64,000 nt of DNA from Candidatus Hermodarchaeota archaeon (GCA_048885925.1 JBHLLG010000003.1:32001-96000); one strand, 5' to 3'. Counted from the stretch's first letter, positions 14,856 through 26,548 are shown. Notes: generated by a model not told the origin, from the letters alone. Numbers and translations are program-made.

Positions 14856-15259
14856 TTTAAAACTTTTTTATTTTAAATTTTCCTTTTTCCATTTTTTCAT
14901 AAAATCTGTAAAATCATAACTAGAGATTCCGAGAGAATTAAAATTTTTTTTTTTTATTTTTTTATCAGATTCAGATTTATCTCTTAAAGACTCCTGCCAA
15001 TCATAATAACTTATAGCTTTTGACATGATCTTATAACCATAATTATAATAAATAAACTAATACAGAGTACCAGTTTTCTAATAGTCAAAGAAATAATACA
15101 AATTTGTCTATTTAGATTTAAGCATTATATTCCATAATACGTACCAAAAGAACAAAAAATTGAAATTAGTAAATAAATTTAAGGGAAAACTTTCATAGGT
15201 TATTTAGAAGGGAGATATACGACAAAAATATTCAGATTTTACATTTTTCAAAATATATT

Positions 15260-16264
15260 TTATTCACTTATAATAGAATATACGTGTTTAGGTCGTCCTG
15301 CTTTTTCGCGTTTAATTATTTCCTCTTTTATTACCCGTTCTTTGACTAAAAATTCAAGGATCTCTCTTAACTTTGCACCAGATATTTTAGATTTAATAAC
15401 CAATTCACGAGTTTTAACTTTTTCTTGGTTTTTAATGATGTCTAAAATGTTCTGAATAGGATCTGGATTAATCTCAATTGATTTAATACAAGTTTTTGCA
15501 TCAAACATTTTTCTCACACTAATTGCCATATTCGGCATATAGAATCCGTTAAAATGAAAATATGAATCATCAATGAATAAAACCGAATTAAAGTAATAAT
15601 CTATTAGAATTACTCCCTCATTGACGATTAAATCATTGAATCTTACTAATCGACATGCTTTTTCATTTGTTTCAATGATTTCTACTTTAATATTTTTTAA
15701 AATATCTGTTATATATCCAAAATAGTTATCAATTGATTCAAAATCTAATTTTGAATAATAAAGTTTAATTTTAATTCCGTTCAAAAAAGCTCTGTTTAAT
15801 CCTCGCTCTAACTTTTTCAAAAGGGATGGTGGAAGAGAAGAAAGGATGATCTCACTTTCTGCTTTATCAATTAATTCATATATATATTCAAGACCAATAT
15901 TTATATCAGAATGATGATAGAACGTGATATTTCGGGTACAAATCCCTTTTACACTTTCTAATGCTTGAATACCTTCCTCAAGTTTATGTATTCTTTCCAG
16001 AATAGTATTATTTTTCTTCTTTAATATTTCTGTTAATATGATTTTTGGGTTACTTCTAAAATACATTTTTGGTTTTCCATCTGAAGCAGTTATGAATCCA
16101 TTATTTTCTAGATATCTTAAATTATCCCTTACCACAGCATAGGAATAGTCTAAATCATTTTTGATTTGACCAATACTTCCAAAATGATTATTTAACAAAT
16201 AATCATAAATTTTAATTTGTATATCAGATAATCCAAATTCATTAAGAAAGTCTAAATTATGCAT
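15260..16264 (-). CDS. TrmB-family transcriptional regulator (N-terminal wHTH, effector domain, C-terminal HTH)
   Basis: 'FGLSDIQIKIYDYLL...L..LENNGFI....GKPKMY...NP', 'IDKAESEI', C-terminal 'GRPKHVY'. Confidence 0.8.
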   Translation of the reverse strand: MHNLDFLNEFGLSDIQIKIYDYLLNNHFGSIGQIKNDLDYSYAVVRDNLRYLENNGFITASDGKPKMYFRSNPKIILTEILKKKNNTILERIHKLEEGIQALESVKGICTRNITFYHHSDINIGLEYIYELIDKAESEIILSSLPPSLLKKLERGLNRAFLNGIKIKLYYSKLDFESIDNYFGYITDILKNIKVEIIETNEKACRLVRFNDLIVNEGVILIDYYFNSVLFIDDSYFHFNGFYMPNMAISVRKMFDAKTCIKSIEINPDPIQNILDIIKNQEKVKTRELVIKSKISGAKLREILEFLVKERVIKEEIIKREKAGRPKHVYSIISE

Positions 16265-20606: not shown

Positions 20607-23015
20607 TTAAATGAAGCATGATAAATCTGTTTGAAGCGATTTCTTATTATAATCTAAAGTTAATAATTCTTCAAGCTCAGGGAACTTAAAAGGAAAGATG
20701 TTTTCAAAAGCTCTTTTTAGAAGTTCAATGTACTTTCTTTTATCATACTGGTGCTTTTTTGGATTATACAAATCTGAAAGGATAACTTTCTTTTCAGGAA
20801 AATTCGGATCCGCATCAGCGTTAAGAATAATATATCTCACATTCTTTCCAGCAGACGCTACAATACCTGAGCGTTCTAACTGTCTTGCGGCTACAGCTTG
20901 ATAAGAATTTACTTTGTATGCTGATGGCTTTCGGGATATTTTTTGACGGATAGAAAGTTCATCTCTGGATACTTTCCCCGAACAAATTCGTTCTACATAT
21001 TCATAGAGCTTTTCCATTGCTTGTGGAATTCTTTCTATAAATTCATTGACGGTTTTTGCACCTTGAAAGACATCAATAAAGGCATATTGAGCATCTTTTA
21101 CAATTTTGGGTATATCTCTGCGTCTCACTTCAATACCTCTCACCTTGACCTCGCCATTGCTTTTTATCCCCCAGTAATGACTAAGGGCTGGTACCTCTGG
21201 TTCTGCTCGAGAAGGCAAGAAAACGATAACATTGAATCTTCCCTCCCAACTCATAGGAATACTTGTGCTTTTAGATATTTCTTCAGCAATTTTTCTTGTT
21301 AATTTCTCAAATTCTTCTGGATTTCTTCCTTTTTTGTCTTGGATCCACATGGAATCAACAATTCCATGGACAATTTTACAATCATAATTTTTAGCAATCT
21401 CGACGGATCTCAATAAAAATTCACGAGCGAAGGCACAAACTGTTTGATGAGCCTCAATTTTTCCAAAACGGGCGTTTTTAAATCCTAAATATCCAAAACT
21501 TACAACAAGTACCCATTTTAATGCAATATCGGTAAATTTGTATCGAAGATCGTCATGAGTCTTATTATATGCTTTACACTCTAAACGCTTTCTTAATGGT
21601 AAACTAATTGATTTCGAAATAATCCCCTCTCTTTTCGAACAAATATGAAAATCTAGACCAGGTACTTTAATCCCTGTACCATCATCTTTACAGCATTTGC
21701 AATTAATCGTTTCTGAAGAAATATTAAAGTTAGCCATTAGGGAGGGATACATTGAGGAAAAGTCTAACTCTATCACTTGATCAAAAACACCTATTAATGG
21801 TTCAAATATATGCCCACCTCGGTCATTTTTGATCAAATCCATTCCACTTCGAAAACCTTCTGGGCTCTTCTTGAAAGGTGGGATAAGGTGATTTAGTTTA
21901 TAGGCATTATAGTATTGTATCGATTGAAGAGCGCCCCCGATTGTTACTCTACATAATCTTTGCAATGGAACTCGAGATACTCTTGCAACCTCAATAACAC
22001 CTGGTATATTTCCCTCGCTAAAGTGTAAGCTACCGTAAGTTGTTGTGTCTAAATGAAAGCGTCCTGTAAAATAAACTTGTGTTTTGGAACGTCGCATTAT
22101 TATTCCGTAAGACATATAATGATCAGAGTTTCCTGAAAGATTGAAGATACACTTTCCGAGTGGCGTTTTTGTGCGAGAAAAATAGAGATCGCTTGATACA
22201 CGATTCACTGATGCTCGAGCTGCCAAGTAAGGAAACACAAATTCATCTCCTCCATGTGTTAAAATAATGTCTGGATCTAAACGCTCAATCACTTTACTAA
22301 TTGATTTGATGGTTTCTGCTTCATCAGCTTTGTCAATTAGAACTTTTCTTTTTCTCTGTCCATCAGCTCTCGGTATGTTGGCTTTTTCGTCTTTTTCAAC
22401 AATACTAACTTCCGCACATATCAGCGGGTCGTTGAAATATGATCTCATTCCATGTTGCTGTATTTTAATATCCAGCCACACAGCTTTTAAAGGTGGTAAC
22501 TCGTAAAACAATTCTTCGTTGTTGTCTTTTAGCTCTAATGAAATTAAACGCATTAATTGCCCGTCACCCTTTTTATTCTTTTCAGAATTAACCTTGAAAC
22601 AACATAAAGACATTGGAAATAAATCATTTACATAGAAATACATTTGCGAGATTGGAAGATCCGTATTATATAGAGTAAAAAGACCGATTTCATCTATTTC
22701 CTTAATTGTTTTCTTAAATACAGAAGGTTTTACTACAGAAACTCCTAATATTTTTACTTTTTCATGATCCTCTAACTTCACATATTTTTCACAGATTCGG
22801 ACATCCTTTACATTGGGGTGTGATTTGAGAATTTGTCTTAATCTCTTGAAATCGTTACCCGTATGTCTTTTTGGTACTGCAAAAAATTCTGGACAGAATT
22901 CATGAAAGATTTTTAAAACCTTTTGTTCCTTTAAAGTTTTTACCCAAAGGATAACTCCCTTATGATAAGTTGAAACATCTAAAAGCCAGCCATCAAATTG
23001 ATCTTGATAATCCAA
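20607..23015 (-). CDS. polB2: Family B DNA polymerase, PolB2 (Dpo2-like) group
   Basis: Motif A 'ELDFSSMYPS', motif B 'KWVLVVSFGYLGFKNARFG', altered motif C 'HGIVDSMW' (vs YGDTDS), degenerate exonuclease motifs, 'VRGIEVRRRD'; C-terminal QTDLSCFI. Confidence 0.9.
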   Translation of the reverse strand: MDYQDQFDGWLLDVSTYHKGVILWVKTLKEQKVLKIFHEFCPEFFAVPKRHTGNDFKRLRQILKSHPNVKDVRICEKYVKLEDHEKVKILGVSVVKPSVFKKTIKEIDEIGLFTLYNTDLPISQMYFYVNDLFPMSLCCFKVNSEKNKKGDGQLMRLISLELKDNNEELFYELPPLKAVWLDIKIQQHGMRSYFNDPLICAEVSIVEKDEKANIPRADGQRKRKVLIDKADEAETIKSISKVIERLDPDIILTHGGDEFVFPYLAARASVNRVSSDLYFSRTKTPLGKCIFNLSGNSDHYMSYGIIMRRSKTQVYFTGRFHLDTTTYGSLHFSEGNIPGVIEVARVSRVPLQRLCRVTIGGALQSIQYYNAYKLNHLIPPFKKSPEGFRSGMDLIKNDRGGHIFEPLIGVFDQVIELDFSSMYPSLMANFNISSETINCKCCKDDGTGIKVPGLDFHICSKREGIISKSISLPLRKRLECKAYNKTHDDLRYKFTDIALKWVLVVSFGYLGFKNARFGKIEAHQTVCAFAREFLLRSVEIAKNYDCKIVHGIVDSMWIQDKKGRNPEEFEKLTRKIAEEISKSTSIPMSWEGRFNVIVFLPSRAEPEVPALSHYWGIKSNGEVKVRGIEVRRRDIPKIVKDAQYAFIDVFQGAKTVNEFIERIPQAMEKLYEYVERICSGKVSRDELSIRQKISRKPSAYKVNSYQAVAARQLERSGIVASAGKNVRYIILNADADPNFPEKKVILSDLYNPKKHQYDKRKYIELLKRAFENIFPFKFPELEELLTLDYNKKSLQTDLSCFI

Positions 23016-23018
23016 TCT

Positions 23019-23291
23019 CTAACCTTTTTCTTCTATCAATTCTTCTAACTTTTTTACCTTCTCCTCTAACTCCTCAATTCTTTTTTCTTGTTCAACTGCA
23101 AAGGAGATAAATAAGACTTCTGACAGCACCGGACGGGCACTCATACTACCTGCATCAGCATGAATTCGAGCGAAGTTCATTAATTTATCAAAAATTTTCT
23201 GTTCTTCAGGGCGTAGAGCTCTTTTGAAGTCTTTCCAGCTTTCGATCTCATGCTCCAAGGCAGGTCGAAAAGAGGGTACCGTTCTTCCCAT
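23019..23291 (-). CDS. Small helical PolB2-associated protein (arCOG07300-like)
   Basis: 'MGRTVPSFR..LE.E...W..F.RALR.E....FD.L' as seen in proteins encoded next to polB2; stop is 3 nt upstream of the polB2 start. Confidence 0.8.
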   Translation of the reverse strand: MGRTVPSFRPALEHEIESWKDFKRALRPEEQKIFDKLMNFARIHADAGSMSARPVLSEVLFISFAVEQEKRIEELEEKVKKLEELIEEKG

Positions 23292-23414
23292 ATCTTTCAC
23301 TTTAATTTAAGGTAAAATCCAAAAAAGAGAGTATTGCAGTAAATTAAAAAAAAAATACAATACCAGTTTTCTGATTTTTAAATCTAATCATCGTTTAATA
23401 GATGATTTTAAAGA

Positions 23415-23555
23415 TTAATTTTCTTTTCCTTGGCATTCCGGACAAACAATCTCATCAAAATCTTCTAAATCACTTCTCCAGAAAAAAACTTTGCCTTTCC
23501 CTTTGCAAATTTTACATTTTTCCACATCTCCTTTTGGATATGCGAAATAGCTCAA
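23415..23555 (-). CDS. 46-aa zinc-finger microprotein (CxxCxGxG...CPECxG); not in the ORF track
   Basis: TTG start after SD AGGTGA; MSYFAYPKGDVEKCKICKGKGKVFFWRSDLEDFDEIVCPECQGKEN*. Confidence 0.7.
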   Translation of the reverse strand: MSYFAYPKGDVEKCKICKGKGKVFFWRSDLEDFDEIVCPECQGKEN

Positions 23556-23624
23556 GTTTTAAATTCACCTTCTAAGGGTAATTATTGGAAAAGATTAATT
23601 CCAACAAAATATGGTTAATCTACC

Positions 23625-23654
23625 TATTTAAATGTTTTCATAAAATATGAAACT
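23625..23654 (-). promoter_or_regulatory. Putative promoter of the Zn-finger/arCOG07300/polB2 unit with inverted repeat TTTCAT-N5-ATGAAA
   Basis: The minus strand reads AGTTTCATATTTTATGAAAACA-TTTAAATA (TATA-like box at 23632-23625). Confidence 0.45.
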
Positions 23655-23732
23655 TGGAAAAATAAATAGAAAGGTTAATAATATCTAAAAATAATACATT
23701 AATACTAAAAGAATGAAGAATAGAGAACAATT

Positions 23733-24143
23733 ATGAGTAAAGATTTGAAAAAATGGCATGCACCCTGTGGAATTTTCTGCAAAAGATGTCCGGGAGTAAA
23801 ATCTTTTGGATGTAGGGGATGCAGAGAGCAAGAAGGTCAAATACGTAAGTTTCCAGTTTGTAAAACCTATAAATGTTGTATAAATAATAGATATGAATTT
23901 TGCTATGAATGTGAAGATTTTCCATGTGAAATGTTAGAACCTATTGTAAATTTTGAAATTTTCACACCACATAATTCCAAAGTATATAATTTGATTATGA
24001 TAGAAAAGTTAGGGTTAGAAGAATGGAATAAAATATGTGATGCCAAAACTAATCTTTACTATAATGGTCGCAAGATTCAATACGGTGGAGATCAATTAAC
24101 TTTAGAAGAAAAAGATCCGAATATGTATAAAAAAAAGAATTAA
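23733..24143 (+). CDS. Cys-rich DUF3795-like protein
   Basis: 'APCGIFCKRC', 'CRGCR', 'CKTYKCC', 'FCYECEDFPC' pattern. Confidence 0.75.
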   Translation: MSKDLKKWHAPCGIFCKRCPGVKSFGCRGCREQEGQIRKFPVCKTYKCCINNRYEFCYECEDFPCEMLEPIVNFEIFTPHNSKVYNLIMIEKLGLEEWNKICDAKTNLYYNGRKIQYGGDQLTLEEKDPNMYKKKN

Positions 24144-24469
24144 TAACTGAAATACTGAGTGAACGATAAATATTTTGATTTCTATACTTAAGATAGTTCT
24201 TTAAATTTAGGAATAAATTAGAAATTAAGTTAAGAATTTTTAAAAAATAAAGTCTATTTTAAAATTTCGTTATTTCTTTAGATTGGTTAGAACTTATCGA
24301 ACAAAAATTCTTCTTAGTTCTTGTTATTATGCCCAAAGAATCCTTATGATAGTTGTTCTCTCACTCTTAAGGAAAAGATCCTAAATTTGTGCAAAAAAGA
24401 AGAAGATTAAGTGTATTATGTTCCTTTCAATAAAATTTTATATGGATAGATTTTCATATATAATATATT

Positions 24470-25207
24470 ATGGTAGCACCTATTACTTTTCTAAATTTTA
24501 TAGGTATGGTCTTCGAGATCTTCATAATAATCATTGCTGCGGTTTTACTAATACTCATTCTAAAAAAATACTTAATTAAACGCCATAAACTTACTCGATT
24601 GCTTTTATTTATTTTTATAAATTATTTTATTGCAATTGTTTTTTCTTGGATCTCAAAAGTTTTTGTAGTTTTTCAGATAAATATAACTCAAGATGGCTCT
24701 ATAACTGCTTCGATATATAATTTAATATCAGATTTTAGATTAAGTGAATTTTTTGTTGTAATTGCCATCTTTCTATCGTATATATTAAAGGTAAATGTTT
24801 TTGAAAAGGGATATATTAAGTTACAAAAATATATCGTGATAATTTATGGGATATTTAGTTGCGCTTACGTATTATTCATCTATGAAGACGGTAATACATT
24901 ATTAGACATTATTGCCTTCTTGATTGTCTTTATATACATGGTTATGGTATATGCCCCTTTTCTACGAAGATCAATAGAATCTTATCGTGCTGTGGAGGAG
25001 AAAACTTATAAACAAGCATTTTTATCCTTAGCAATCATGTCAGTCAGCTTTATGTTGATATTTCTTAATTTTGCTGTCGATCGATTATTAATCTTTTTAG
25101 GAAGCCTTGGATTTACCGTCTTTTATTTTCTAGCGTGGAGTTTTGCTATTGTAGGTATTTTTGGATCATACTATGGTTATGTTAGACCAAAGGCTAGTAA
25201 GGAGTAA
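24470..25207 (+). CDS. About 7-TM membrane protein (receptor-like, unknown family)
   Basis: 245 aa with about seven hydrophobic segments separated by short basic loops. Confidence 0.7.
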   Translation: MVAPITFLNFIGMVFEIFIIIIAAVLLILILKKYLIKRHKLTRLLLFIFINYFIAIVFSWISKVFVVFQINITQDGSITASIYNLISDFRLSEFFVVIAIFLSYILKVNVFEKGYIKLQKYIVIIYGIFSCAYVLFIYEDGNTLLDIIAFLIVFIYMVMVYAPFLRRSIESYRAVEEKTYKQAFLSLAIMSVSFMLIFLNFAVDRLLIFLGSLGFTVFYFLAWSFAIVGIFGSYYGYVRPKASKE

Positions 25208-25299
25208 TCATTAAATTTTTAAAAACTAAACATTAAATATTTTATAAATATTTTTATTTATTCACTAGAACATTAGAAATATGTTAAGCTGTGATTTAG

Positions 25300-25713
25300 A
25301 TGGAAAAGATAATACAAGATATATGGATACTAAATGATGCTGGTGCGGTTCTATTTAACCGTGTTTTTGAAAAAAAAATTGATGAACAATTAATTGGAGC
25401 TTTGATGTCAGCATTGAATCTATTAGCAGAAGAATTAGAAAGAGGAGGCTTATCTAATTTTCAGCTTAAAGAAAAAAAATATTTTATTATGAAACAACAT
25501 GGAATATCTTTTATAGTTAATTCCTCAAAAAAGACTAAAGAGAAAAAAGTTAATGAAGAATTGAAAAGTATAGTAAATAAGTTCTTCAATTTATATCCAA
25601 AAGAGATGCTTAATACTTGGGACAATGATATAAGTATATTTTCTGATTTCGAAAAGCATATTGAAGATAGTTTACAAGATACTATAGATAAATTTGAAAA
25701 AGCTTTTTGGTAA
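25300..25713 (+). CDS. Stand-alone longin-like domain protein (Asgard type)
   Basis: 'IWILNDAGAVLF.R', 'DEQLIGALMSAL..LA', 'L..I..KF...Y', 'F.DF' pattern typical of longin/sigma-adaptin-like folds. Confidence 0.7.
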   Translation: MEKIIQDIWILNDAGAVLFNRVFEKKIDEQLIGALMSALNLLAEELERGGLSNFQLKEKKYFIMKQHGISFIVNSSKKTKEKKVNEELKSIVNKFFNLYPKEMLNTWDNDISIFSDFEKHIEDSLQDTIDKFEKAFW

Positions 25714-25717
25714 TATT

Positions 25718-26467
25718 TTAAAACCACACGTCAAGAGTCATATTTCGTAAGGGTACCTTTTTCTTAGGTTTACGAAGTTTCCACTTTTTCAGCCTATTTT
25801 CTGGTAAGTAAGGATGTTGAACAAGCGTATATTCGACATATCTCTCATCATCATTTATCATTACCAGCACATTTCCAAAATGAGAAAGAATTTTACCTCC
25901 TTTTGGTCTGAAGAGGGAATGTTCATGTAAGGGTGCCGTTATTATAATGAGAGGTTTTGTTTTCCAGAGCATCTGTTTAATTCCATCTATCGCCCTTAGC
26001 AATTCTTCGAAAGTTTGCTTTTCATAGCCTTCAAATAGAGTTGTAATCCCAGAGATAAGTACAACTTTCACATCTTCAAGCATTGAAAGCTTATTCTCCA
26101 GAATCTCAATTATTTGGTCAAAAGTAAAGGCTCGTGAAATAAGGATGTTTTCTAACGCCATACGAGGGGACAGGTTTTGAGTGACTGCAAATTTGCTTAC
26201 GTTGTAAGGGTTAAAATGATTATTTCCATCGATAAAGGCAACTCTAATACCCTCTCCAAGTCCTCCATTGTCAAACGCTTTTTGAACGATAACTGCCGTT
26301 GTTAATAAGATATTAGTTGTTAATTTCTTATCTCCATAAAGTAAATAGACTAAATCTCTGTGGAATCCGCCAGAAAGCAACTTATTGAGAGTCTTATCTC
26401 CGCTAGAAATGAGGTGCGAATGATTGTTTCTTTCATGTACCGTGAATCCAGAATCAAACGTCATCAT
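25718..26467 (-). CDS. Inactive RadA/Rad51-like paralog (PolB2-associated type)
   Basis: 'ISSGDKTLNKLLSGG', degenerate Walker A 'LLYGDKKLTT', 'VAFIDGNNHFNPY', 'LENILISRAFT..Q'; no N-terminal HhH; C-terminal NMTLDVWF. Confidence 0.85.
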   Translation of the reverse strand: MMTFDSGFTVHERNNHSHLISSGDKTLNKLLSGGFHRDLVYLLYGDKKLTTNILLTTAVIVQKAFDNGGLGEGIRVAFIDGNNHFNPYNVSKFAVTQNLSPRMALENILISRAFTFDQIIEILENKLSMLEDVKVVLISGITTLFEGYEKQTFEELLRAIDGIKQMLWKTKPLIIITAPLHEHSLFRPKGGKILSHFGNVLVMINDDERYVEYTLVQHPYLPENRLKKWKLRKPKKKVPLRNMTLDVWF

Positions 26468-26548
26468 ATGAAGTAACTATTCTTCAAAATAAAACAAAGA
26501 TACACCGACAATTTTCTGAAATAAATCCAATTTCTCCATAAGACAATT

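Follow-up and report, generated by a model that had tools for sequence, protein, structure and literature searches.

Does an archaeal mutagenic polymerase hold its sliding clamp through one subunit or through two? This question is raised by a locus of Candidatus Hermodarchaeota archaeon (GCA_048885925.1, JBHLLG010000003.1:32001-96000; the whole analysed stretch of 64,000 nucleotides is called the window here), in which the family-B DNA polymerase PolB2 and an inactive RadA paralog (iRadA) both end in short peptides resembling the PCNA-interacting peptide (PIP). PolB2 ends with QTDLSCFI (20610..20633, minus strand) and iRadA with NMTLDVWF (25721..25744, minus strand), in both cases the last eight codons of the gene. 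An initial annotation of the window had deduced from this that the mutasome is tethered to the clamp, and that the dead recombinase serves as a second PCNA adaptor. Based on our observations, we consider it likely that the locus encodes a PolB2 translesion mutasome with two PCNA-type tails, the genes of which, together with a gene for a protein of 52 aa, belong to three transcription units that are switched on together.

The identity of the three genes is clear from their features. The gene of PolB2 (20607..23015, minus strand) starts with TTG and encodes a family-B polymerase of 802 aa with matches to DNA_pol_B and exo1 in Pfam, and NCBIfam concurs. In the alignment with Pfu PolB (4ahc), motif C reads HGIVDS instead of YIDTDG and Exo II reads GGDEFV instead of NGDSFD, with the Asp of motif A retained; this alignment bears out the degenerate exonuclease and the unusual motif C described initially. 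PolB2 also contains a DK dipeptide (VLIDKADE), and a PolB2 loop consisting of a beta-alpha motif plus D[KR], which docks on iRadA in the heteropentamer, is a trait of PolB2 mutasomes. The stop codon of the small PPB2 gene is separated from the TTG of PolB2 by 3 nt. Its open reading frame (ORF) was listed as 23019..23300 (minus strand), but translation most likely begins with the ATG at 23291 (23019..23291), resulting in an all-helical protein of 90 aa with the N-terminus MGRTVPSFRP. Among 52 PPB2 orthologs, 42 start with MGRT and ten with MCGRT, and the residues M1, G2, R3, T4, F8 and R9 do not vary when sequences from four families of the phylum are aligned. AlphaFold2 (AF2) predicts four helices, with the arm disordered (pLDDT 74). 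With its MGRT arm, its length of approximately 90 aa, the helical model and the position beside polB2, the gene is of the arCOG07300 type, as had been supposed. 

The third gene, iRadA (25718..26467, minus strand), is located on the same strand 2.4 kb upstream of the PPB2 ORF. Its product of 249 aa is reduced to the ATPase core of RadA/Rad51 and matches Rad51 in Pfam (E 2.9e-15) and Rad51/RadA in NCBIfam. When aligned to Pfu RadA (4a6p), it was found to have no N-terminal helix-hairpin-helix (HhH) domain and to contain YGDK-KLTT at the position of the Walker A sequence GEFGSGKTQ, in line with the annotation as a Walker-A-dead paralog, and GxxxxGK[ST] was found in none of the 35 members of the iRadA family alignment. 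Since these features of PolB2, PPB2 and iRadA match those defined in PMC4104785 (Makarova et al. 2014) and in PMC11791011 (Timinskas, Timinskas & Venclovas 2025), the locus is, judged by its sequence, a PolB2-PPB2-iRadA set and a new, ordinary member of the known PolB2 mutasome system. The coordinates first given for PolB2, the small ORF, the RadA paralog and both tails were all correct.

Both tails are located at the extreme C-terminus, following variable basic linkers (KKWKLRKPKKKVPLR in iRadA) past the last aligned domain residue, and both fit the pattern Q/N-x-x-L-x-x-aromatic-hydrophobic/aromatic under which they had been noticed. They are also kept in orthologs. Among 120 close homologs of iRadA, 119 contain N-x-x-h-[DE]-x-a-a within the last 12 aa, and Q-x-x-h-x-x-a-a is found within the last 14 aa of 111 of 120 close PolB2 homologs, the core Q-x-x-h-x-x-a even in 119 of them. 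A scan of species-representative genomes, for which a 9-sequence iRadA alignment was used as query and which returned mostly the window's own family, resulted in 72 loci, with iRadA complete in 62 and both genes complete in 42. Both motifs are present in 30 of these 42 loci. In seven, only the iRadA motif was found and the PolB2 tails are mostly near-misses such as QKDLLCFTE; four others combine the iRadA core with the PolB2 motif, and one the iRadA motif with the PolB2 core. The consensus tails of the family, which is of the Lokiarchaeia type, are NxT[LI]DxW[FIV] for iRadA and QxD[LMI]SCF[ILF] for PolB2. In sequences chosen by the pattern (58/62 for iRadA, 40/42 for PolB2), the motif columns are nearly invariant, with entropies of 0.0 (N), 0.3 (T), 0.1 (D) and 0.2 (W) bits in iRadA and 0.0 bits for the Q of PolB2, compared to 1-2.5 bits in the x and linker columns. 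Residue L245 of iRadA is at least 90% conserved in the 35-sequence alignment.

Such short motifs could be chance resemblances without function, and the genome is AT-rich and its proteins contain many F, I, L, N and K residues. To this we compared 3203 crude ORFs of at least 100 aa from the same genome. Only 12 of them (0.37%), PolB2 and iRadA included, have [QN]xx[LIVM]xx[FWY][FWYLIVM] at their exact end, and 40 have it within the last 12 residues. Further, dozens of species in which the proteins are 65-90% identical have kept the tails, the x positions being variable. This rarity together with the conservation in orthologs effectively refutes chance, which we regard as extremely improbable.

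Which protein would the tails bind? The proteins of the same genome that end in the pattern include FEN1 (QVSLDDFIK), PolD-DP2 (QHKLSDFF) and Nre (QKTIDLFL), and therefore the pattern marks clamp clients in this organism. When compared to the PIP consensus Q-x-x-[LIVM]-x-x-[FWY]-[FWY], QTDLSCFI deviates only at position 8 (Ile) and NMTLDVWF only at position 1 (N); FEN1 (..DDFIK) and Nre (..DLFL) likewise have I or L at position 8. The list of matching proteins also holds two DUF72 proteins and one radical-SAM/HhH protein. The DUF72 proteins, L097 (G000:C24:39197-40069) and L098 (G000:C46:3165-3965), have the PIP-like tails ..GQVGLDKFLK and ..VQKNLIDYI. According to PMC11791011, DUF72 genes are enriched near polB2 elsewhere, and it is possible from the sequences that DUF72 is a further clamp client. 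The radical-SAM protein L099 (G000:C20:23977-25284) has 435 aa, ends with QTTLHDFVKII and is a candidate PCNA client as well.

There is a single PCNA gene in the genome (L001:1072-1875, minus strand), which encodes a protein of 267 aa. Co-folding of PCNA with residues 205-249 of iRadA resulted in an ipSAE of 0.55, compared to 0.01 for the best of three controls. Among 157 solved complexes, 116 reached the mark used for such models, and so did 2 of 215 mismatched pairs, but values up to 0.60 comprise just 18 of the 157 solved complexes and both passing mismatches. The runs agree in at least 78% of the contacts, with a partner pLDDT of at least 48. Since PIP-PCNA structures are already solved, the co-fold shows likeness and not binding. 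PCNA itself ends in a strongly acidic tail, EEAEFEDEDDMDEF, and with the lysine-rich linkers in front of both PIP-like tails an electrostatic contribution to the binding is possible.

Short hydrophobic peptides at the C-terminus are promiscuous, and the N in place of Q in iRadA and the weak support from the PCNA model could be explained if the tails were PIP-box lookalikes that dock on another shared partner or make contacts within the mutasome. However, the pattern is concentrated in the clamp-dependent proteins FEN1, PolD-DP2 and Nre of the same genome, and the tails have the setting typical of PIP boxes, at the extreme C-terminus following a disordered basic linker. In addition, the motifs of bacterial family members are those for the beta clamp (PMC11791011), which indicates that the clamp is the target. 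Thus, docking on another partner is in our view rather improbable. Instead, the sequences suggest that both tails would bind PCNA, and both may be used at once.

A more serious alternative is that only one tail, most likely that of iRadA, anchors the clamp, and that QxDLSCFI of PolB2 is inherited and kept for folding, for a contact within the complex or for another partner. The iRadA tail is indeed nearly universal. Among the 150 listed representatives at 50% identity, 75 have 215-320 aa and no Walker A motif, and 56 of these 75 contain the core h-x-x-a-a in the last 30 aa, compared to 13% of interior windows, and 47 of the 56 have D or E at position 5. The iRadA tail is therefore a family-wide trait, in agreement with PMC11791011, where C-terminal PCNA motifs are described on iRadA (more often) or on PolB2, but 'rarely in both'.

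The PolB2 motif is distributed more narrowly. In a sample of 300 genomes of the phylum, searched with an iRadA query, iRadA was found in 59 of the 67 genomes of the window's family and in 6 of 7 order-mates. It was also found in the families f9 (63/76), f15 (3/3), f23 (1/3), f3 and f4, and the query used did not detect it in the other families searched. Two order-mates, L074 and L075, have a contiguous iRadA-(PPB2)-PolB2 operon with both motifs. Four loci of f15 and f23 also have a contiguous operon, with the motif on iRadA only. In f9 and in one genus of f2, iRadA and PolB2 are unlinked, with distances of 230 kb to 1.2 Mb on single contigs (G239:C1, G075:C1, G244:C1 and G210:C1); for the f9 genomes G239 and G075 (L106, L107) the adjacency of PPB2 was confirmed. 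The f9 iRadA tails read TLPLSHFL, and the PolB2 tails of the unlinked loci do not contain the motif, the one exception being a PIP-like tail in f2. The sampled tails thus indicate that the double motif appears confined to the window's order, and the absence of the PolB2 motif from the f15, f23 and f9 samples is what a single anchoring tail would explain. On the other hand, Q, the aliphatic residue at position 4 and the aromatic residue at position 7 of PolB2 were kept in nearly all close homologs while their linker neighbours vary, and the pattern and position of this tail equal those of the C-terminal PCNA motif of PolB (compare 3a2f, the Pfu PolB-PCNA entry). We therefore find it unlikely that the PolB2 tail has no role at the clamp, and prefer the reading with two PCNA-type tails.

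The genes of this module are arranged in an unusual way. In all 42 complete loci, iRadA precedes PolB2 on the same strand, at a distance of 128-6961 bp, which places the paralog in the PolB2-linked iRadA family. The gap between iRadA and PPB2 is filled with varying genes of the opposite strand; only 4 of the 42 loci have no recognised insert. Thus, iRadA and PPB2-PolB2 are not a single operon here. According to PMC11791011, mutasome genes are 'only rarely interspersed', whereas iRadA is split from PPB2-PolB2 in 42/42 of our loci. With the genes unlinked both in f9 and in a genus belonging to the window's order, it appears that the 'tight operon' was broken repeatedly in Asgard archaea. In some relatives, the gap contains partial second copies of the 3' end of iRadA, the tail VPLKNATIDYWF included (L013:12048-12457, plus strand, and G177:C29:23598-23798). 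These copies resemble leftovers, either from a duplication or from the rearrangement by which the operon was split.

The separated units share a promoter box. Upstream of iRadA (26485..26520, minus strand) we found TTCAGAAAATTGTCGGTGTATCTTTGTTTTATTTTG, which starts approximately 51 nt before the ATG and includes the TATA-like element TTTTATTT; upstream of PPB2-PolB2 (23340..23375, minus strand), ATCAGAAAACTGGTATTGTATTTTTTTTTTAATTTA is located approximately 83 nt before the ATG. The consensus sequences are T[CT]AGAAAATT-N6-GTAT-N5-TTTTATTT for iRadA and ..AGAAAA[CT]T-N6-GTAT-N5-TTTTAAT for PPB2. The internal spacing is equal and strongly conserved in orthologs, and the box (T[CT]AGAAAAYT..GTAT) lies 23 nt ahead of the TATA-like element. 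A position weight matrix built from orthologous sites, with the window left out, scored 48.1 bits at iRadA, the top of the 3.9-Mb genome, and 33.7 bits at PPB2, the second, with the next best site at 15.3 bits. In 1.44 Mb of related loci, box matches were found 57 times upstream of iRadA, 48 times upstream of PPB2 and five times elsewhere, and all five other matches precede a conserved ORF of 52-57 aa. In the f9 genomes, the iRadA promoters showed only ordinary TATA elements; the pattern for the PPB2 start gave no match there, which limited the box search in this family.

In the window, the corresponding ORF of 52 aa (14868..15026, minus strand; MSKAISYYDW...KKWKKENLK) shares the strand of PolB2, 5.6 kb downstream of it, and is preceded by a third copy of the box, TTAGAAAACTGGTACTCTGTATTAGTTTATTTATT (15047..15081, minus strand), approximately 55 nt before its ATG. 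Here TTAGAAAACTGGTACTCTGTATTAGTTTATTT is found 55 nt before the ATG, and the distance between box and TATA equals that in the other two promoters. The relaxed pattern AGAAAAYT..GTAT..TATA-like, which combines box, GTAT and TATA-like element, matches six sites in the genome, three of which are these promoters. Within the phylum sample, the 52-aa family was found in 58 of the 67 genomes from the window's family and in none of the 232 others. Its position downstream of PolB2 is syntenic, and up to four paralogs are present in some genomes. The residues M1, S2, K3, S6, D9, W10, G33, W46 and N50 are invariant, and AF2 predicts two helices (pLDDT 74.8). A search for a PIP-like motif and for a Pfam family in this protein gave no match.

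The presence of the same box upstream of a TATA-like element at three units suggests that one factor probably switches all of them on together, and we infer from these promoter sequences that iRadA, PPB2-PolB2 and the 52-aa gene are co-regulated by one factor. A gene for a TrmB-family regulator (15260-16264, minus strand; Pfam TrmB and Regulator_TrmB) is located directly upstream of the 52-aa ORF and is syntenic in at least 12 related loci. It is preceded by an inverted repeat, TTTGTGAC..GTCACAAA, which resembles an operator for autoregulation and has no relation to the AGAAAAYT box. We considered this regulator as the box factor and rejected it, since its own palindrome differs and nothing connects the regulator to the box. 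In Sulfolobales, a damage-responsive element (ANTTTC within AATAGTTTCRGWDTACTCWS), which is located 23-55 nt upstream of the ATG and is bound by Orc1-2, drives the damage induction of dpo2 and other genes (PMC6061795). The box described here is similarly promoter-proximal (51-83 nt upstream of the ATGs), but differs in sequence (AGAAAAYT..GTAT) and is found at three promoters only, without a global regulon. An identity of the two elements was rejected as well, because just a loose TAG-N8-TAC(T/A)C match exists in one promoter class, that of the third promoter. A gene for Orc1/Cdc6 beside polB2, as reported for other archaea, is not found here; all three paralogs are on other contigs.

Taken together, the following model is suggested. 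PolB2, with its dead exonuclease and non-canonical motif C, would be the catalytic subunit; PPB2, a small helical protein, would reach with its MGRT arm into the complex; and iRadA, an ATPase-dead RadA, would dock on PolB2. Most likely, the hydrophobic pocket of the single homotrimeric PCNA would receive both PIP-type tails, on their flexible lysine-rich linkers. At a stalled primer end, the complex could then be attached to the clamp through one or two of the three sites of the latter. The iRadA gene, PPB2-PolB2 and the 52-aa gene would be separate transcription units on the same strand, switched on by one factor, plausibly after DNA damage. It is tempting to speculate that the bivalent PCNA client, the dispersed genes, the private box and the 52-aa two-helix protein, as a putative fourth component, form a dedicated mini-regulon of three promoters that is probably damage-responsive, a proposal which we make tentatively and hold at somewhat less than even chances.

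Several observations weigh against this model. One of the strict motifs is wanting in 12 of the 42 loci, and the non-canonical N in iRadA and Ile in PolB2 are fixed in the family. In the f15, f23 and f9 samples, PolB2 is without such a tail and iRadA has one, and thus one tail evidently suffices. The co-fold covers PCNA with the iRadA tail alone and supports their contact weakly. The occurrence of both motifs in one organism is called rare in PMC11791011. At the promoters, the bare 12-base core AGAAAAYT-N6-GTAT occurs eight times in the genome, compared to approximately seven expected, and is at chance level; therefore, only the full architecture is specific. Finally, the damage induction of the three units, although plausible, is borrowed by analogy from Sulfolobus dpo2.

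How does this system compare to known ones? The first comparison is to the PolB2 mutasome itself, for which PMC11791011 presents models of a PolB2-(PPB2)3-iRadA heteropentamer, called 'mutasome', and proposes that the clamp motif can 'shuttle' between iRadA and PolB2; the clamp motif in a recombinase homolog is claimed there as the first of its kind. The same trio of gene families is found here as in this system, the studied enzyme of which is Dpo2 of Sulfolobus islandicus, and so are the loss of the first Asp of motif C, the dead exonuclease, the MGRT arm and the Walker-A-dead RadA core. Thus, the clamp-tethered mutasome with a dead recombinase as PCNA adaptor, as proposed in the initial annotation, is supported by the sequence evidence, but is not new. 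The locus differs from the norm of PMC11791011 in that both subunits have a motif across the whole family, and from the described PolB2 mutasome in its private promoter box, which is also present at a lineage-specific 52-aa gene. The main text of PMC11791011 makes no mention of Asgard, Loki or Heimdall, its supplementary tables being outside this check, and our literature search for iRadA or PPB2 in combination with Asgard, Lokiarchaeota or PCNA gave no other relevant paper.

As to bacteria, the initial annotation had drawn an analogy to ImuA-ImuB-DnaE2, whereas the parallel drawn in PMC11791011 is that to Pol V (UmuD'2C-RecA). The E. coli Pol V mutasome (UmuD'2C-RecA-ATP) likewise combines an error-prone polymerase, a RecA-family protein and a small subunit on a clamp, and the N-terminal arm of its small subunit lies near the active site, similarly to the PPB2 arm (PMC11791011). 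Unlike in our system, Pol V is a Y-family polymerase, RecA is active and without a clamp motif, and the clamp is beta. With regard to the other analogy, ImuA'-ImuB-DnaE2 of mycobacteria also relies on a catalytically dead paralog to link a mutagenic, damage-induced polymerase to the clamp, and includes a RecA-like protein as well. There, a dead polymerase of the Y-family has the role of the adaptor, and a C-family polymerase is the catalytic subunit. In our system, by contrast, the adaptor would be a dead recombinase, the catalytic subunit also has a motif, and the proteins are unrelated to those of mycobacteria. In eukaryotes, the accessory subunit Pol32 carries a PIP. The locus resembles Pol zeta and Pol delta, the former also compared in PMC11791011, in having a B-family extender with a dead exonuclease and accessory subunits, and putatively in clamp contacts from more than one subunit. 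The accessory subunits have unrelated folds, and there is no evidence of direct descent.

The remaining genes of the locus lie between iRadA and the PPB2 promoter. A DUF3795 gene (23733-24143, plus strand), divergent from PPB2, is present in the gap of 33 of the 42 loci; it may have been kept there stably as a passenger, or may be a partner that has not been recognised. It is followed by genes for a membrane protein of 245 aa (24470-25207, plus strand) and for a longin-like protein of 137 aa (25300-25713, plus strand), which abuts the iRadA stop codon from the opposite strand. For the latter, the match to the first longin domain of FUZ/MON1/HPS1 stays under the threshold (24.3 bits, cut-off 26.1), and the identity to the proteins of relatives is 73-87%. 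A previously unlisted, TTG-started ORF of 46 aa with a CxxC..CxxC zinc ribbon (23415..23555, minus strand), located between DUF3795 and the PPB2 promoter, was found by tblastn in the same place in approximately 18 loci at 55-69% identity, with a weak match to DnaJ_CXXCXGXG under the Pfam cut-off.

In summary, what is new here are the lineage-wide double clamp motif, the constant split of the genes, the private box and the 52-aa gene, which are modest additions. Since the core idea is already published, the locus confirms and extends it and opens no new field. These additions are of interest for several reasons. In the one archaeon studied, damage-induced mutations arise mainly through the PolB2 system, the holoenzyme of which, to our knowledge, has been described only by models. 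A lineage that keeps both motifs is a natural place to ask whether one or two PCNA sites are used. Asgard archaea are the closest relatives of eukaryotes, and the question of one or two sites recalls the multi-subunit, multi-PIP polymerases of eukaryotes. Last but not least, we know of no regulator of such kind in Asgard archaea, and the shared box offers a concrete handle on the co-regulation of a dispersed repair module in these organisms.

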